A stretch of DNA of 35,605 bases from a virus. Taxonomy: Duplodnaviria > Caudoviricetes. The stretch is from the IMG/VR virus record IMGVR_UViG_3300032243_000269, positions 1 to 35,605 of that record. One strand, written 5' to 3'. This document shows, one piece after another, positions 14,648 through 24,160 of the stretch; the first letter of the stretch is position 1, and every line of letters starts with the position of its first letter. Position numbers and translations under genes: made by a program. A model generated the notes under the pieces. The model was given only the letters and a program-made list of their open reading frames with translations. It searched no databases and was not told where the DNA came from.

Positions 14648-15085
14648 TTATTTGATTTTATCGGCTAAGAATGTATTCCACTCTGGCTCATGCTTAAGTA
14701 TATAGATAGTTTTACACTTATCTAATGCACCTCTAGCAGATGGGCAGAAGTATCCTTTGTAGATACCACCATCCTTGCTTGGACCTTGCAGTGCAGTCAT
14801 CTTACCGTGAGGACATGTGCGCCCCCCACCTAACGATTGTGTTGGAGGGGCTTGGTTAAAAGGCGGTATCTCCTGTGCATTGAACGCTTGCTTAGCGTAT
14901 GCAATAGCAGTCGGAGCTTGAGATGGCTTAGCTATAACTTCTAGTTCTGTTATAGCGGATTGAATACTTGCTAATGAGGTAGCAACTAATTGGTCTAGTT
15001 CCTCACCTGTGTTAGCACGTACTGTTAACTGCGTACCTGATGCAGTTCTTATGTTGATACTGATTGGTGCTTCTGTACTACTCAT
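14648..15085 (-). CDS. hypothetical replication-module protein with a C-terminal zinc-binding motif
   Basis: ATG 15085 after AAGGAG; CPHG.M......G..YKGYFC......C. Confidence 0.7.
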   Translation of the reverse strand: MSSTEAPISINIRTASGTQLTVRANTGEELDQLVATSLASIQSAITELEVIAKPSQAPTAIAYAKQAFNAQEIPPFNQAPPTQSLGGGRTCPHGKMTALQGPSKDGGIYKGYFCPSARGALDKCKTIYILKHEPEWNTFLADKIK

Positions 15086-15707
15086 GCTTCTCCTTTGGTG
15101 TATACCACTGACATTGTGCAGTATATCCACACATTATGCAATGGTCGAAGTTAGGTAAAAATATACCAGACTTCCTTGCCTTGTCAAACATATCTACCAA
15201 CGTCTCGACCTTGCTGTCATCCAGACCAGCAAGGTCGTGCGGTGGAGATAATTCTCCCTTACGTGCCATCCAGTAGTAACCCTTGGTTATGTTTAAACCA
15301 AACTGTTTACGGATTCCATATGCATAGAAGGCTAACTGTAATGAACTATGCGGTGTAGTTTTACCTGTTTTTAAATCTACGATTACATATTCTTTATTGA
15401 AGCTGTCATAAAACACACGGTCGATTGCCATCTTAACCGTCACACCATTAATTACCGGTGCTAATTCTAATTCGATTGCTAACGTCCCATCGTCCAGCTT
15501 AGCGATTGACATGTGAGTATTTTCCTCACGCCATTGCACCCAGTTCTCTAAGAACTTATAGCCATTGGTATACCACCAATCTCCATCCTCTGGGTTACGT
15601 GATTTAACCGCAGCCATACGCCAATTAGACGTGTCTGCTAGATTGTATTCATCACGTTCGTATGCAGTGGCTTGCCACCATGTATTCCAATGCTCTATTA
15701 GATTCAT
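15078..15707 (-). CDS. Cas4-like / RecB-family exonuclease, C-terminal part
   Basis: IELEL, IDRV, IVDLKTG, QLAFY, and terminal PN..C..C.Y...C. Confidence 0.85.
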   Translation of the reverse strand: MNLIEHWNTWWQATAYERDEYNLADTSNWRMAAVKSRNPEDGDWWYTNGYKFLENWVQWREENTHMSIAKLDDGTLAIELELAPVINGVTVKMAIDRVFYDSFNKEYVIVDLKTGKTTPHSSLQLAFYAYGIRKQFGLNITKGYYWMARKGELSPPHDLAGLDDSKVETLVDMFDKARKSGIFLPNFDHCIMCGYTAQCQWYTPKEKHE

Positions 15708-15850
15708 TTACATACCGTACAATAGTTAGTTACTCTTATGTTTCCATAACTAACATGGTATATGCGAGCACATCTATAACATACAACTTCCACTAGACTG
15801 TTTTTGTTTCTCTCTACAAAATAAAATGGATTACGAATCCTTAATCTCAA
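15704..15850 (-). CDS. 48-aa zinc-finger protein lying between the two exonuclease halves
   Basis: MRLRIRNPFYF...CYRC...YCTVCK; TTGA overlap upstream and ATGA overlap downstream; not in the ORF track. Confidence 0.7.
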   Translation of the reverse strand: MRLRIRNPFYFVERNKNSLVEVVCYRCARIYHVSYGNIRVTNYCTVCK

Positions 15851-16035
15851 GGGTTTAACCTATCCCATTCCTCAGTCGCTTTGTGTACGGCTGAACCTCC
15901 ATAGAACCACCATGCTGGTAGTTCAGCAATCTTTTGTACTCTGCTTAAATAATATTTCCATCCACATGACAACCACTCAGTAAGTGATGAGTATGAAACG
16001 TGTATAGGTAAATCGTGGTCATCAATCTTAATCAT
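15847..16035 (-). CDS. Cas4-like / RecB-family exonuclease, N-terminal part
   Basis: HVSYSSL..W..CGWKYYL.R.......W...GSAVH.A.E is the usual N-terminus of this family; AAGGAG RBS. Confidence 0.85.
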   Translation of the reverse strand: MIKIDDHDLPIHVSYSSLTEWLSCGWKYYLSRVQKIAELPAWWFYGGSAVHKATEEWDRLNP

Positions 16036-18982: not shown

Positions 18983-19113
18983 TCATCCTCCCACATACGG
19001 TCAGGTAAACCTGAATCATCCTCATCACATACGCATTCCTCCCGGTCACAACCATCACATGGTTTAGTATCCAATGCAGCTTCATCACCTTCTAAATACC
19101 TAGGCTCACTCAT
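18979..19113 (-). CDS. small acidic Cys-rich protein (44 aa)
   Basis: MSEPRYLEGDEAALDTKPCDGCDREECVCDEDDSGLPDRMWEDE; TAATG and ATGA overlaps; not in the track. Confidence 0.7.
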   Translation of the reverse strand: MSEPRYLEGDEAALDTKPCDGCDREECVCDEDDSGLPDRMWEDE

Positions 19114-19259
19114 TAGTTATGCACCCCATAAGCAAAGCAGATAGTTTGTATTGCTCTAGACAATTCACTGAGGAATTCAGTTTTTTTTTCTTGATTCATA
19201 CCATTAACATCTTTATCATGTATGATTACTTGATATATTATTTCATTCATAGTACTCAT
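19113..19259 (-). CDS. hypothetical protein
   Basis: 3' part of track ORF 19113-19343; start at 19259 or 19250 after GGAG. Confidence 0.55.
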   Translation of the reverse strand: MSTMNEIIYQVIIHDKDVNGMNQEKKTEFLSELSRAIQTICFAYGVHN

Positions 19260-19416
19260 CTCCAATCCATTGAGCTTCATAGCTTTCCTCTTGGTCCATT
19301 GGTGCAAGCCAAGCATTGTGTAACCTGGCTTGTTCAACTGCATCTACTTCATTCAGTGCGGTTACGTCTTGCTCTTGCTCATAGGTGGTAACTTTCCACA
19401 CTTTATACTTAGGCAT
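19243..19416 (-). CDS. hypothetical protein (57 aa)
   Basis: MPKYKVWKVTTYEQEQDVTALNEVDAVEQAR...DEYYE; AAGGA RBS; not in the track. Confidence 0.65.
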   Translation of the reverse strand: MPKYKVWKVTTYEQEQDVTALNEVDAVEQARLHNAWLAPMDQEESYEAQWIGDEYYE

Positions 19417-19567
19417 TGACATGTCCTTCAGTTAATAGTCCGTCAAGTAAATCACCAGCTGTCTCAACTAATAATCTATCTGTCTTATTAAGTTGGACGC
19501 CAGAGTTACCTACCTTGTAGCATGCTTGAATCATCTGCTTGATTTCCTCTTGCTTGTATCCTAGCAT
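19409..19567 (-). CDS. hypothetical protein (52 aa)
   Basis: MLGYKQEEIKQMI...DLLDGLLTEGHVNA; GGAGG RBS; not in the track. Confidence 0.7.
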   Translation of the reverse strand: MLGYKQEEIKQMIQACYKVGNSGVQLNKTDRLLVETAGDLLDGLLTEGHVNA

Positions 19568-19639
19568 TGTTATCCTCCATTTCTTTTAGTTGTTTGATTA
19601 GATAGTTAAGTTGGTCATACATATCTAGTTGTTCATCCA

Positions 19640-19864
19640 TCATACTCTCCATGTCTGTCTCATTATAGGCTCACCAGTGCTGACTCGAATAAGTGCAACA
19701 CCTGCTGTATATCTTGCTCCTGAGTTGAAGTTGAGTTCATTTTTCCAACATGCAAGAGCGGCATCGTAATCGTCAAAATACATGACATAACTATCTGGTC
19801 TGTGGTCTGTATACGTGACGACTTTATACTCACGGATTTCTTCTGCGATATCATTCAGATACAT
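19640..19864 (-). CDS. hypothetical protein
   Basis: 74-aa ORF tiling in the early cluster. Confidence 0.6.
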   Translation of the reverse strand: MYLNDIAEEIREYKVVTYTDHRPDSYVMYFDDYDAALACWKNELNFNSGARYTAGVALIRVSTGEPIMRQTWRV

Positions 19865-20063
19865 TGGTCACACGCACAGGCATAACGTAATCTACTTTAG
19901 CCCATTGACCTTTAGCGTTGACATCTACTAGCCATCTATCTAACAGCTCGGTAATTGTCTGGTCGCATATAGATTGTAGTGCTTCTTCACTATACTTTTT
20001 AAGTTCAGGCATCTTACTGATGTCTAGGTTATGCCTGAATACTAATGCTGTGTATATCTCCAC
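19851..20063 (-). CDS. hypothetical protein
   Basis: GTG start after AAGGAG; 70 aa. Confidence 0.6.
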   Translation of the reverse strand: MEIYTALVFRHNLDISKMPELKKYSEEALQSICDQTITELLDRWLVDVNAKGQWAKVDYVMPVRVTNVSE

Positions 20064-20072
20064 GTTATCTCC

Positions 20073-20198
20073 TTATTTTTTTAGCTCGCGTAGTTTACGA
20101 GTCAGTTGAGCATTTTTAATAGCAGTAGTAATTACTAATGTAATACTTAACGTCAATGCAATTATAATTGCTATTGTATCTGTTATCTCGATGTACAT
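20073..20198 (-). CDS. small single-pass membrane protein (41 aa)
   Basis: MYIEITDTIAIIIALTLSITLVITTAIKNAQLTRKLRELKK; GGAG RBS before ATG 20198. Confidence 0.7.
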   Translation of the reverse strand: MYIEITDTIAIIIALTLSITLVITTAIKNAQLTRKLRELKK

Positions 20199-20224
20199 AT
20201 TTACTCCGTTTCTATTAGGTTGGG

Positions 20225-20255
20225 CTGCGCCCAAGGCAATTGCTGCTGGGCGCAG
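20225..20255. promoter_or_regulatory. GC-rich intergenic hairpin
   Basis: CTGCGCCCA / TGGGCGCAG perfect 9-bp stem, no U-tract. Confidence 0.5.
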
Positions 20256-20269
20256 ACCAGTATGATTGT

Positions 20270-20389
20270 TTATATAATAGGTTTCATCTTCCAGCATTTA
20301 CAACACTGTCTTACTTCAAGCCAGTAGTTGTTATGCCAATGGTGGAAATGAAACTTACCTACAGGTTTAGGGAAATGACAGTCTTTCAT
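20270..20389 (-). CDS. tiny His/Cys-rich protein (39 aa)
   Basis: MKDCHFPKPVGKFHFHHWHNNYWLEVRQCCKCWKMKPII; ATGA overlap with the upstream ORF. Confidence 0.5.
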   Translation of the reverse strand: MKDCHFPKPVGKFHFHHWHNNYWLEVRQCCKCWKMKPII

Positions 20390-20457
20390 CTTCCACATCC
20401 TTTACATTCAGGGCGAAGGCAATCGCCACAGATTACAGGCTTATCTATATCTGTCAT
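20386..20457 (-). CDS. tiny CxxC-CxxC peptide (23 aa)
   Basis: MTDIDKPVICGDCLRPECKGCGR; ATGA overlaps at both ends. Confidence 0.5.
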   Translation of the reverse strand: MTDIDKPVICGDCLRPECKGCGR

Positions 20458-20855
20458 GATACATACTCATCACAGTTGACGCATTTAGTTTGAGCAAGGG
20501 TAGTCAGATGACACCAAGCACAGACTAATTCATTATTATGTATATCTAGGTCGTCAGATTCTGCGACTGATTCCATGCGAGCCTGAATCTCGCCTTCATA
20601 GAACTCCTTGCGGAGTATGGGCTCACCATACTTGTCGAACCCAACAATCTGAACAGAGCTTACCCAGTCATGATTGCTGGACTGAACCAAGTCAGCGTTA
20701 TACACGTGACCCAGACGCCCGTCAGGACGGGAGTCTTCATGGTCACGGTCATATGCCTTAGGGTATTCTTCATTTTCATCAGGCACATCTAATAAGTACT
20801 TAATGAATTTCTCGTACTCATCGTCATTGTATGCAGTTATTCCGATACTAGTCAT
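20454..20855 (-). CDS. acidic hypothetical protein with a C-terminal zinc ribbon
   Basis: AGAAAGGAAAG RBS; CAWC...CVNC. Confidence 0.7.
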   Translation of the reverse strand: MTSIGITAYNDDEYEKFIKYLLDVPDENEEYPKAYDRDHEDSRPDGRLGHVYNADLVQSSNHDWVSSVQIVGFDKYGEPILRKEFYEGEIQARMESVAESDDLDIHNNELVCAWCHLTTLAQTKCVNCDEYVS

Positions 20856-20949
20856 TCTACTTTCCTTTCTGTATAAAGTTCAGCCTGTCTGACTGAACTG
20901 TTGGCGCTGACATGTATAGCAGGTCTGTACGATGCTATACATAGCAGTG

Positions 20950-20995
20950 AAAAAAAACAGGAAGCCTATCCACGTTAGCAGATAGGCTTCCTGTT
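20950..20995 (-). terminator. intrinsic terminator after the SSB-like gene
   Basis: AACAGGAAGCCTATC / GATAGGCTTCCTGTT perfect 15-bp stem running into a T8 tract on the minus strand. Confidence 0.9.
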
Positions 20996-21004
20996 ACAGA
21001 CTGC

Positions 21005-21373
21005 CTAAATAGACAGACTTTCTAGCATATAGTTGGTTATCCACTTGTCGCCGACCTTGTTGGTTCTTAACCAACCAGATACATTGACACGGTGTTTTGC
21101 TGATGTTTTAGCAGGCTTGCGCTCACGTGTATCAGCGTCTTCGCCGTCGAAGTGCAGGTCCCCACCGCTTAACTCAGGGTTTGTAGCGGTGCTTTCCAGC
21201 GCTTTTAGGCTGGCGACTGCGTCGAATGAACGGAATGGCAGAGAGGCTTCGAACTTGCCCTTTTCATCTCGAAGTATCAAGATGCCGCTTGCGTAAGCGT
21301 TGCCGTTCTTTGCAGTACGGAAGTTCAACGCAGCAAGTTCTGCGTCTTCGAACGTGATTTTGTTGCGGTTCAT
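21005..21373 (-). CDS. putative OB-fold single-stranded DNA-binding-like protein
   Basis: ATG 21373 after AAAGGAGA; pattern FRTAKNGNAYASGIL...LPFRSF...RVNVSGWLRT...W...Y resembles SSB/PriB OB folds; no acidic tail. Confidence 0.5.
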   Translation of the reverse strand: MNRNKITFEDAELAALNFRTAKNGNAYASGILILRDEKGKFEASLPFRSFDAVASLKALESTATNPELSGGDLHFDGEDADTRERKPAKTSAKHRVNVSGWLRTNKVGDKWITNYMLESLSI

Positions 21374-21595
21374 TTTTTCTCCTTTGTAGTTTTCAAGGTA
21401 CTTCTGCCCGCTTATGGCGAGCAAGAATCCGCTTTGCCGCAGACTGGGTGCCTGTCCTGTCAAGGACGACACGCTGCAAGCGTGGCGCAGCTCTGCTGCT
21501 TGTCCTTGCGGGATGGGCTGTCTGTGGCAGGATTTGCTGCTCGCTATGGGCTGAAGGACCTGCTCCTGAAAACTGCAAAGTCAGAATAAAATGAA
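21369..21595 (+). other. ~227-nt rod-like imperfect inverted repeat (structured ssDNA or RNA element)
   Basis: Eight nested helices read by eye, 8 G-T pairs on the + strand, forked apex; see findings. Confidence 0.85.
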
Positions 21596-21617
21596 GCGCC
21601 AAAACACGGAAGAAGCG

Positions 21618-21953
21618 TCAGGACTTGTGGAGGGAACTGGAGGACTGCTGGCAACGCTGAGCGGCATCTACCGAGATGGGGCAAGGAGAAGCCGTGCCAT
21701 GGAGTTCATGACAGCGTCGCCTGCCGTTGCTGGATGCCGCTACAAGACTGAGTTGGTGGGGGCACTTGACAGGCGAACGCTGATGTGAGCGCTGCTAAAA
21801 CTCAGCAGCCGTGGCACTGGTTGGTTGAAACCAACATGGCAGAGACAGCATAGGATAATCAACCCATGCTGGAAAATTCTATTTAAAGGCAGGCGCACAG
21901 GGAGACTATAGGTGTGGAGAGAGCAGTCCTAGGCAGACGCACTGCTATAGGAC
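21618..21953 (+). ncRNA. candidate structured non-coding RNA/ssDNA domain
   Basis: GC-rich non-coding stretch with many complementary segments, some crossing; family not recognised. Confidence 0.4.
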
Positions 21954-22128
21954 AGGCATAGCAGCACTGACTTGACCCGGAGACTTATTAACCAGGCAGT
22001 GAATGTAATACTGTATCTCTCCTAAAAATTATTTGTGGTTATAGTTACCTTTGCCCCCTGTCAAACTGGTACAAAATAGGACATAACGACCTACTTAGCA
22101 TAGGAAATAAAAATACTTTAAAATAAAA

Positions 22129-22222
22129 CGTCCGTTTTACCCGTTTGGACGGATTAGTACTGTATGTAGCAGTAAGTTATTCGCCAGGCTTTTATATAGC
22201 CTGGCTCATACAGTTACAGTAC
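22129..22222 (+). promoter_or_regulatory. structured leader upstream of terminase (late promoter/packaging region)
   Basis: CGTCCG/TGGACG, ACTGTATG/CATACAGT and GCCAGGCT/AGCCTGGC stems after an AT-rich tract. Confidence 0.45.
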
Positions 22223-22270
22223 AGGTGTTACAGACAGTGTAGGACGGCGAAAGACTATCTAAAGGACACC

Positions 22271-24160
22271 ATGACATTCAAAGCTGGCGAGGAGCATTTC
22301 AAGGTTAAGGCTCTAGCCGAGGCAAAAGCTAAGGTTATAGAATTAGTTAGCCAAGGGGCTACTACCCACCAAGCTATGAACATGGCTGGCAAGAAACCGG
22401 ATACGGTTCGTCAGTGGATGCTTAGGGATGCTAACTTTGCAAAGGAGTTGGCTAAGGCTAAGGAACTAGGTGAGAGTCTCACTCTAGCTAACCTAGGGTA
22501 TGACAAGAAAGATTTACCCTTTGCTGAATTTTCAAAAAATTTTTTAGACCAGACAGTCTTCCCACATCATCAAGACTGGGTCGACCTGTTAGAGGGACGG
22601 GAACCTTCTTGGCTTCACCCTAGCATGATATATGACAAGGCTGATAAGTCTAGGATTCTTATTAACGTGCCACCGGAGCACGCTAAGAGCACGGTTATTA
22701 CCGTGAACTACTCAACATACCGTATCGCTCTCGACCCTAATGTTAGAATCATCGTTGTTTCTAAGACACTGATAAAGGCACGAGAATACGTGTACGCAAT
22801 CAAGCAACGTCTCTCACATCCAAGATGGCTTAAGATGCAAAACGCATTTGGTCCTCAAGGTGGATGGAAAGAAGACGCAGATACTTGGCGAACCGATACA
22901 GTGTATCTCGGGAGCGATGCTCGTAACTCAAGTGAGAAAGACCCTACCATTCAAGCACTAGGTATGGGTGGGCAGATTTATGGAGCCCGTGCAGATTTAA
23001 TTATTCTTGACGACGTGATAACCACAGCCAATGCCCATGAATGGGAAAAACAACTGAACTGGCTACAAAAAGAAGTTATCACTCGTCTCGGCAAAAACGG
23101 CAAGCTATTAATAGTGGGGACTAGAATTGCGCCAAGTGACCTATATAAGGAACTTCGTAGTCCTGAGCATTGGTCTGGTGGTAAGTCTCCCTTTACTTAT
23201 ATGGGTATGCCTGCTGTACTTGAGTACGATGTTGACCCAAAAAATTGGGTTACGCTTTGGAAAGAATCAGATGTCCCATGGGATGGCGATGAAACAGTAC
23301 CTCCCAACGAAGCTGGATATTATCCCAAGTGGGATGGACAAACATTATTTAAACGTCGTTCCGAAGTTACTCCTACTACGTGGGCTCTTGTTTACCAACA
23401 AGAAGACGTACAAGAAAACTCTATCTTCCCACCAGCTTTGGTACAGGGAAGCATACTCGGGGCTAGAAGAGTCGGACCTTTAAAGCCAGGGGTACAAGGC
23501 CATCCTAAGAACGTTGAAGGCTACACCATTATTGGTATGGACCCAGCTATTGCTGGCCATGCAGCTTTAGTTGCAATAACTTTTAATAGAGCTGATGGTC
23601 GTATCTACGTACTAGATTGTTTAAACATGGCAGAGCCTAGTTACCAAAAGATACGTGATGCTATAGAAGCTATGACTATCAAATATAAACCCCAAGAAAT
23701 ACGAATCGAAATTAACGCATTTCAGAAAGCATTTGAATTAGATGACAGCTTACGGCAATGGCTTGCTGGATACGGCGTACGGCTTAGTTCTCACCATACA
23801 GGAAAGAACAAATGGGACTCGAATTTTGGAGTTGCCTCCATCTCAAGCTTATTCGGAACTACTCAAGACGGTAAGTTTCAAAACAACAACCTCATTGAAC
23901 TACCATCAAGTGAGGGCTCAGAAGGAATCAAAGCTTTAGTACAACAGTTAATTACTTGGAAACCAGACACTAGAGGTAAGACCGACTGTGTTATGGCTTT
24001 ATGGTTTGCAATTATTAGGGCAAGAGAATTGATTCAAAGCGGTACAAGGATAACACCTTATTTAGATAATAGATGGGCTACTAGAGCTCAAATGGAAAAA
24101 AGAAACTCAATCAACTTAGACGATGCTTTTAATGAGCAATGGTCTGAAATATACGGTTAG
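22271..24160 (+). CDS. terL: terminase large subunit with an N-terminal HTH extension
   Basis: ATG 22271 after AAAGGA; Walker A-like PPEHAKS, GARADLIILDD, VGTR, YQQ, nuclease IGMDPA, EINAFQ, TDCVMA. Confidence 0.9.
   Translation: MTFKAGEEHFKVKALAEAKAKVIELVSQGATTHQAMNMAGKKPDTVRQWMLRDANFAKELAKAKELGESLTLANLGYDKKDLPFAEFSKNFLDQTVFPHHQDWVDLLEGREPSWLHPSMIYDKADKSRILINVPPEHAKSTVITVNYSTYRIALDPNVRIIVVSKTLIKAREYVYAIKQRLSHPRWLKMQNAFGPQGGWKEDADTWRTDTVYLGSDARNSSEKDPTIQALGMGGQIYGARADLIILDDVITTANAHEWEKQLNWLQKEVITRLGKNGKLLIVGTRIAPSDLYKELRSPEHWSGGKSPFTYMGMPAVLEYDVDPKNWVTLWKESDVPWDGDETVPPNEAGYYPKWDGQTLFKRRSEVTPTTWALVYQQEDVQENSIFPPALVQGSILGARRVGPLKPGVQGHPKNVEGYTIIGMDPAIAGHAALVAITFNRADGRIYVLDCLNMAEPSYQKIRDAIEAMTIKYKPQEIRIEINAFQKAFELDDSLRQWLAGYGVRLSSHHTGKNKWDSNFGVASISSLFGTTQDGKFQNNNLIELPSSEGSEGIKALVQQLITWKPDTRGKTDCVMALWFAIIRARELIQSGTRITPYLDNRWATRAQMEKRNSINLDDAFNEQWSEIYG

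Follow-up and report, generated by a model that had tools for sequence, protein, structure and literature searches.

A strand-biased DNA hairpin at the start of an SSB-like gene in a tailed phage: a candidate single-strand promoter near the probable genome end

A long inverted repeat that reaches across the start of a small gene in a tailed dsDNA phage raises the question of what use such a virus would have for a folded DNA strand at this place. The first-pass annotation of the locus had proposed a promoter or origin that works only in single-stranded DNA, akin to Frpo-type elements in front of ssb genes. The analysed stretch, termed the window, comprises the 35,605 nucleotides of the phage record IMGVR_UViG_3300032243_000269, with a completeness of about 89%. 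Rightward genes encode terminase, portal and tail proteins and leftward genes an amidoligase, an exonuclease, DnaB, a DnaG-type primase, a sigma factor and WhiB, and the window also encodes a lysin. The PD-(D/E)XK exonuclease at 15078–16035 looks split into ORFs of 62 and 209 residues with a short ORF in between. Among the 38 window proteins scanned, there was no relaxase, T4SS family or other conjugation gene, and the window yielded no phage RNA polymerase. The large terminase (22271–24160, + strand, longest ORF starting at 22145) is divergent from the gene below the hairpin, and the same orientation, at a distance of 892–1229 nt, is found in all 57 related loci holding more than 1030 nt of upstream sequence. 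Its closest cultured counterparts are those of the LanE43 phages E7 and F5 (60%) and of Streptomyces cluster BF podoviruses (Beephvirinae, 43%), which also share the gene layout and a terminus motif described below (PMC9753666, PMC10202952). Neither group has a homologue of the hairpin-associated gene or a comparable rod in the stretches scanned. As the two groups hold the closest cultured terminases, E7 and F5 having been isolated on 'Ca. Planktophila' (PMC10202952), the host is presumably a freshwater actinobacterium.

When positions 21360–21605 are folded as DNA, the + strand, which is the template of the adjacent gene, adopts a rod (21365–21599) of 97 pairs, 8 of them G-T, which is kept in relatives. 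Its forked apex (21470–21499), formed by the stems CACGCT/AGCGTG and GCAGC/GCTGC, is variable in relatives and missing in some clades. Five of the nested helices of the first-pass annotation were re-read by script and proved correctly placed, with 8 G-T pairs in total. The DNA fold has an energy of –77.1 kcal/mol (z –10.9) on the + strand versus –59.9 (z –7.2) on the minus strand, the RNA fold one of –132.3 (z –10.3) versus –105.7 (z –7.4) with the same order of strands, and in each of the four folds none of 200 shuffles equalled the native rod. The preference for the template strand that had been claimed is thus borne out by energies and by aligning both arms in a strand-neutral way, which yields 8 G-T and 1 A-C on the + strand of the window, and it is a relative one, since the minus strand also folds far above chance. 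Among 506 sliding windows covering the 35.6 kb, the rod ranks first with a residual z of –6.9 (runner-up –3.5), so that no other part of the window is as strongly structured. At E ≤ 10, none of the Rfam covariance models matched the hairpin, and the 7 weak matches in 19000–23000 fell elsewhere.

The gene whose start lies within the rod, P0001 (21005–21373, minus strand), encodes 122 residues and is predicted to be an ssDNA-binding protein of SSB/PriB type. We identified 22 homologues and found no family for it in Pfam and PHROGs and no match among GenBank phages. Its structural model (pLDDT 78, residues 63–91 disordered) contains the five-stranded OB barrel of SSB type that had been expected for this protein and matches SSB and PriB structures with a Foldseek E-value of 4e-5; a comparison with SSB in VIA gave Z 11.4 and an rmsd of 2.2 over 86 residues, with SSB and PriB tied. 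The protein stops at the last strand and lacks the acidic tail of canonical bacterial SSB, being PriB/SsbB-like in this respect. Its disordered loop holds a conserved acidic GGDLHFD motif at an internal position, which we take to resemble the C-terminal partner-binding peptide of SSB. After the stop codon, an 18-bp stem followed by a T run (20948–20995, minus strand), with similar stems visible by eye in most relatives, has the appearance of an intrinsic terminator and closes the gene as a unit of its own, as had been suggested.

To what extent these features are conserved was assessed in 76 loci of the P0001 family obtained from three scans, 73 of which allowed placement of the start codon. 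Of these sequences, 68 including the window hold 300 nt upstream and 53 are distinct. In all 53 upstream regions a rod covers the ribosome site and the first codons (z ≤ –4.8 throughout, 12 shuffles each), with a size across the family of 150–270 nt, and in 51 the template strand has the lower energy. Transition mismatches in the strand-neutral arm alignment appear on the template strand as G-T in 356 and as A-C in 99 cases; counted by 24 clusters (cut at 75% identity), which share kinship and are thus not independent, the numbers are 153 and 44, with 22 clusters leaning to G-T and one to the opposite. No such bias is found in one subclade (L002, L003, L005, L008, L023, L027), where the ratio of G-T to A-C is 5:6 in L002, 5:5 in L003, 5:9 in L005 and 4:7 in L027. 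In a clade of 18 sequences, 23 of 55 pairs are altered on both sides in compensatory manner compared to 3–8 in slid controls, and none of 500 shuffles, which ignore relatedness, reached this number. Where two loci differ in their left arms, the right arms match their own left arm 3092 times, that of the other locus 204 times and neither 6661 times. Pair counts left out the cross-clade MAFFT alignment (A2) for its poor quality, and a covariance model of the short clade matched in 25 sources only L061, L064, L066, L069 and L030 and missed the window, so it is weak on extra copies. With a fold kept throughout the family, covariation between its arms and unequal stability of the two strands, the proposal of a Frpo-like promoter in front of an SSB-like gene is supported at the level of sequence, and none of the three refuting conditions examined (a fold without conservation or covariation, equal stability of the strands, a protein other than an OB fold) applied.

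The distribution of the element was investigated in 80 loci fetched by terminase, of which the 47 with at least 1.3 kb upstream were used for co-occurrence. None contains a gene of the P0001 family and 46 lack the rod, with inverted-repeat scores of 35–57 versus 74–135 in the 24 clusters, and eight of the rod-free relatives carry a terminase that is 97–99% identical. As hairpin, gene and terminator come and go together, sequence comparison identifies them as a cassette of accessory nature, and a core role in packaging is accordingly disfavoured. Only L098 deviates, with a long branched hairpin of another kind and no P0001 gene. Located about 560–880 nt upstream of the terminase, before a 135-aa gene and a second SSB-like gene, this hairpin bears TTGACA on both arms, is favoured on the template strand (–83.4 vs –73.8) and shows no clear –10. 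Of the cassette loci, 45 of 47 carry downstream a second small gene of SSB fold that has no rod, as do 21 of 41 terminase loci; it was not found in the window. This second family (L103:828-1169 on the minus strand and homologues; 102–114 aa, Foldseek E 4e-6 for an SSB fold) is not alignable to P0001 and in most relatives belongs to the early operon, with many phages carrying two tail-less SSB-like genes. The idea that it replaces P0001 was rejected given the presence of both in those 45 loci, which at the same time makes it less evident why the P0001 cassette would be needed.

Promoter-like boxes are found in both arms at the places where they had been annotated. The right arm, as putative non-template strand, contains the –35-like hexamer TTGCGG (21506–21511, + strand), which pairs with TGTCAA (21458–21463, TTGACA on the minus strand), and a candidate extended –10 composed of TG (21525–21526) and the –10-like hexamer CAGGAT (21528–21533). 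A 4-nt bulge in the left arm (21431–21434) separates the nucleotides that face –11 and –10 and breaks the –10 of the gene-sense strand in duplex. The pairing predicts a transcription start at 21418–21423 on the minus strand, with a leader of about 48 nt and a Shine-Dalgarno-like AAAGGAGA (21378–21385, minus strand) within the left arm. A simple untrained sigma70 score, fixed in advance and applied to the 24 clusters, chooses the right arm in each of them, at the homologous spot with leaders of 15–49 nt in 22, and rates this site above the best gene-sense site in 20. Compared to shuffles, its p-value is below 0.05 in 10 of 24 clusters and 0.57 for the window's own site, and since latter is no better than shuffles, the case for a promoter rests on the relatives. 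The motif anchored in the 24 clusters consists of a TTGACA-like box, a spacing of 16–18 nt and TGn-YAkrNT, with TG in 22 clusters, where anchoring imposed A at –11 and T at –7 and rewarded TG, so that these positions are biased by design; position –12 is C in 17, T in 6 and G in 1 cluster. Some clades hold a near-consensus –10 (TATGCT, TATGAT), one form reading TTGACG-16-TGC-TATGCT, and one clade is devoid of a –35, its 150-nt rod (e.g. L074) containing only TGnTAGGCT directly below the apex. In mycobacteria, the –10 element is described as ANNNT and a –35 consensus as not required (PMC6448022).

The fold leaves a defined opening in this motif. Averaged over the 24 clusters, the unpaired probability is 0.65 at –11 versus at most 0.08 at –16 to –12, and the opening is made by an internal loop or a bulge of 2–5 nt in the left arm. 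Because the same left-arm insert that opens –11 also interrupts the duplex gene-sense copy, latter has no –10-like hexamer at the matching place in 21 clusters and keeps one in 3. A conserved gene-sense duplex promoter feeding the ssb mRNA was not found in the clusters, the best scores being scattered and at the level of shuffles. Bulges recur along both arms, perhaps preventing a perfect palindrome, and many relatives have an insert of 4–5 nt in the right-arm copy of the Shine-Dalgarno sequence (e.g. A3 columns 245–248). A search for the promoter pattern in five related genomes gave matches in three, and the one that was checked falls inside whiB and was discarded.

Where single-stranded DNA might arise is suggested by a conserved motif, TGACCC..TTAA..AAAATT (21973–22035, + strand), in the spacer between hairpin and terminase. 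Cluster BF phages are described as having direct terminal repeats of 253–275 bp and a terminase near the left end (PMC9753666). A matrix of three blocks, weighted on 15 family sites and with blocks picked after viewing BF sequences, finds its best site at 213 in the 46-kb genome of FlowerPower (score 20.3, next independent site 8.4) and at 235 and 224 in Immanuel3 and WRightOn, whose left ends only were scanned; in all three Streptomyces phage genera the top site is located exactly 40 nt before the end of the repeat. Searched with an nhmmer profile, the motif gave no significant result, with E 0.46 in Immanuel3 and no hit in FlowerPower. Given the choice of the blocks with knowledge of BF and the insignificant profile, we can only infer the genome end, which by analogy with BF would place the right physical end, and with it the 3' terminus of the + strand, at about 22013. 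Six of 14 contigs starting just ahead of the terminase begin 72–80 nt before the motif, a hint that these starts are left ends. In L116, L117 and L133, three contigs that differ in sequence, the first bases are GACAAC at 80 nt ahead of the motif; these could be physical left ends, in which case the repeat of this clade would measure about 120 bp. The contigs L018 and L033, which end on the ssb side, do not stop at the predicted right end. An end overlap of 127 nt in one contig (L040/L097) is located elsewhere and looks like an assembly overlap. A hand-made regular expression for the motif, which recovered both BF ends, matched no more than 31 of the 61 loci of the family, failed in the window and was abandoned for the matrix. 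The core GACCC..TTAA..AAAT, noted in the window and in L078, L084, L085 and L087, is common to these freshwater phages, E7/F5 and Streptomyces BF phages.

Taken together, we consider it likely from these sequence relationships that the hairpin is a Frpo-like promoter for the host RNA polymerase that functions only in single-stranded DNA, is attached to an accessory ssb cassette and is fired when the genome end becomes single-stranded. At linear DNA ends, 5'-to-3' resection or unfinished lagging-strand synthesis leaves a 3' tail, for which we take T7 as a parallel. With the 3' terminus of the + strand at the right end, either process would bare the rod-forming strand, the better folding of the two and the template of ssb, and the hairpin would be located about 415–650 nt from the end. 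Once the + strand is unpaired in this region, the rod would fold, with its right arm providing the –35-like box and TGn-YAkrNT and its left arm serving as template. The host σA holoenzyme would then bind a pre-opened fork, in which pairing ends at –12 and –11 is free, start near 21420, read into the ssb-like gene and stop at its own terminator. Filling in of the strand would switch the promoter off, and in any mRNA reading through the region the ribosome site would be buried in the corresponding mirror-image stem of RNA. Whether a lytic dsDNA phage in this way senses the end of its own chromosome, with a folding tail from which SSB is made until fill-in shuts off expression, is a step further, which we propose tentatively and hold to be somewhat less probable than its converse. 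Sensing of single-stranded DNA during entry, which had been considered as another source, found nothing in its favour.

In published descriptions, Frpo1 and Frpo2 of plasmid F, ssi1-3 of ColIb-P9/pESBL and class 2-3 ssDNA promoters share a long stem-loop of the template strand that rebuilds –35 and –10 elements before ssb (PMC9849209, PMC11541004, PMC12672017). Stimulation of Frpo by SSB has also been reported (PMC11541004). The phage rod likewise is a template-strand stem-loop just upstream of a gene whose fold reassembles gene-facing –35 and –10 boxes, which are consensus-like only, weak in the window and in one clade without –35. Similar to those systems, it would be expected to be silent towards the gene in duplex, which at the level of sequence corresponds to the 21 interrupted duplex copies. 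It differs by residing in a tailed dsDNA phage instead of a conjugative leading region, by its actinobacterial-type host, by its organization as a single-gene cassette with its own terminator and by the source of ssDNA, which would be the genome end instead of a transferred strand. By comparison with published descriptions, we thus regard the rod as working like Frpo/ssi elements and, in view of its location outside a conjugative leading region, do not class it as a member. To the first-pass annotation, the analysis adds the TG of the extended –10, the conserved opening at –11, the putative position beside the right end and the joint presence and absence of hairpin and gene. The promoters for the virion RNA polymerase of N4 are likewise template-strand hairpins in a dsDNA phage; these are reportedly short and read by the phage's own enzyme, whereas the rod described here has 150–270 nt and mimics a host σA promoter. 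At the minus-strand origin of M13 and the ssoA of rolling-circle plasmids, the host RNA polymerase reads a folded strand with an unpaired –10. This resembles the proposed mechanism, although latter elements prime ssDNA genomes or intermediates and the phage rod is directed to a gene with its ribosome site. To our knowledge, ssDNA promoters for host polymerases have so far been established only for conjugative transfer, and the full texts searched included no case from a tailed dsDNA phage.

The described features could also be accounted for in duplex DNA and RNA, with the right arm acting as ordinary promoter that points away from ssb and is read across the terminal repeat to the terminase, and the inverted repeat as RNA leader locking ssb translation. 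T7 phiOR would presumably offer a parallel for an outward promoter near a terminal repeat. In duplex, the right arm indeed is an intact promoter-like sequence facing outward, with –35 and –10 in line and near consensus in some clades, and a gene-sense RNA reading through the region would have its Shine-Dalgarno sequence and start codon hidden (unpaired 0.13 vs 0.65) by a stem that reaches across latter. A lock on translation does not explain why the pairing bias favours the strand opposite to the mRNA or why the opening is located at –11, no conserved gene-sense promoter was found that would supply the message, and the element is absent from phages of near-identical terminase. The prevalent C at –12 also speaks against a strong outward promoter, as VANNNT promoters are described as weaker (PMC6448022), and we consider this explanation unlikely. 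Comparably improbable, if not slightly more so, and compatible with the preferred single-strand promoter, is an origin of the ssi/ssoA kind, where the host RNA polymerase would lay down a primer to fill in the tail of the + strand, with expression of ssb being secondary. Anatomy and polarity would be the same, and Frpo-type promoters are reported also to prime (PMC12672017; bioRxiv 2026.01.09.698686). Conversely, the phage has a DnaG-type primase and DnaB of its own, the element is gained and lost together with the ssb gene, and the predicted start retains a leader with Shine-Dalgarno sequence in front of a gene with its own terminator.

Two further functions appear still less plausible. A structured RNA transcribed from the + strand over the ssb start, either as 6S-like polymerase decoy or as antisense RNA, would agree with the strength of the RNA fold and its G-U bias, as sequence cannot separate the folding of DNA from that of RNA. 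The consensus scan, however, finds neither a + strand promoter inside ssb nor a terminator behind the rod, the boxes have the spacing of a DNA promoter and point to the Shine-Dalgarno sequence, and the 6S-like RNA named in the first-pass annotation found nothing to recommend it in the light of the missing Rfam match, which makes such an RNA very improbable. The lowest probability, and a marginal one, we assign to a signal for packaging or duplication of the terminal repeat, such as the 'hairpin end' that is said to serve this purpose in T7 concatemers. The rod does lie a few hundred bases inside the presumed right end, but it is absent from 46 of 47 terminase relatives, Planktophila phage E7 and the scanned BF ends, which keep the terminus motif, so that packaging as a core function is largely excluded.

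If the rod acts as single-strand promoter as we propose, it would constitute a protein-free gauge of ssDNA that travels with a portable ssb cassette, and ssDNA promoters would no longer be confined to conjugation but be found in tailed phages and in Actinobacteria as well. The state of phage DNA, such as end resection or unfinished replication, would then directly control a gene, and upstream hairpins might mark genes that are needed while phage DNA is single-stranded. The natural variants, among them the shortest rod of 150 nt, whose sole promoter box is an extended –10, are suited for studies of actinobacterial σA on a folded strand, and the terminus motif may allow the calling of genome ends in metagenomic contigs. 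Finally, a block of the form GTTC..TGTTTGAACGGATTAA..TATATAG (22126–22165), located before the terminase, is strongly conserved and also found in F5, and is a candidate for a late promoter or packaging site.
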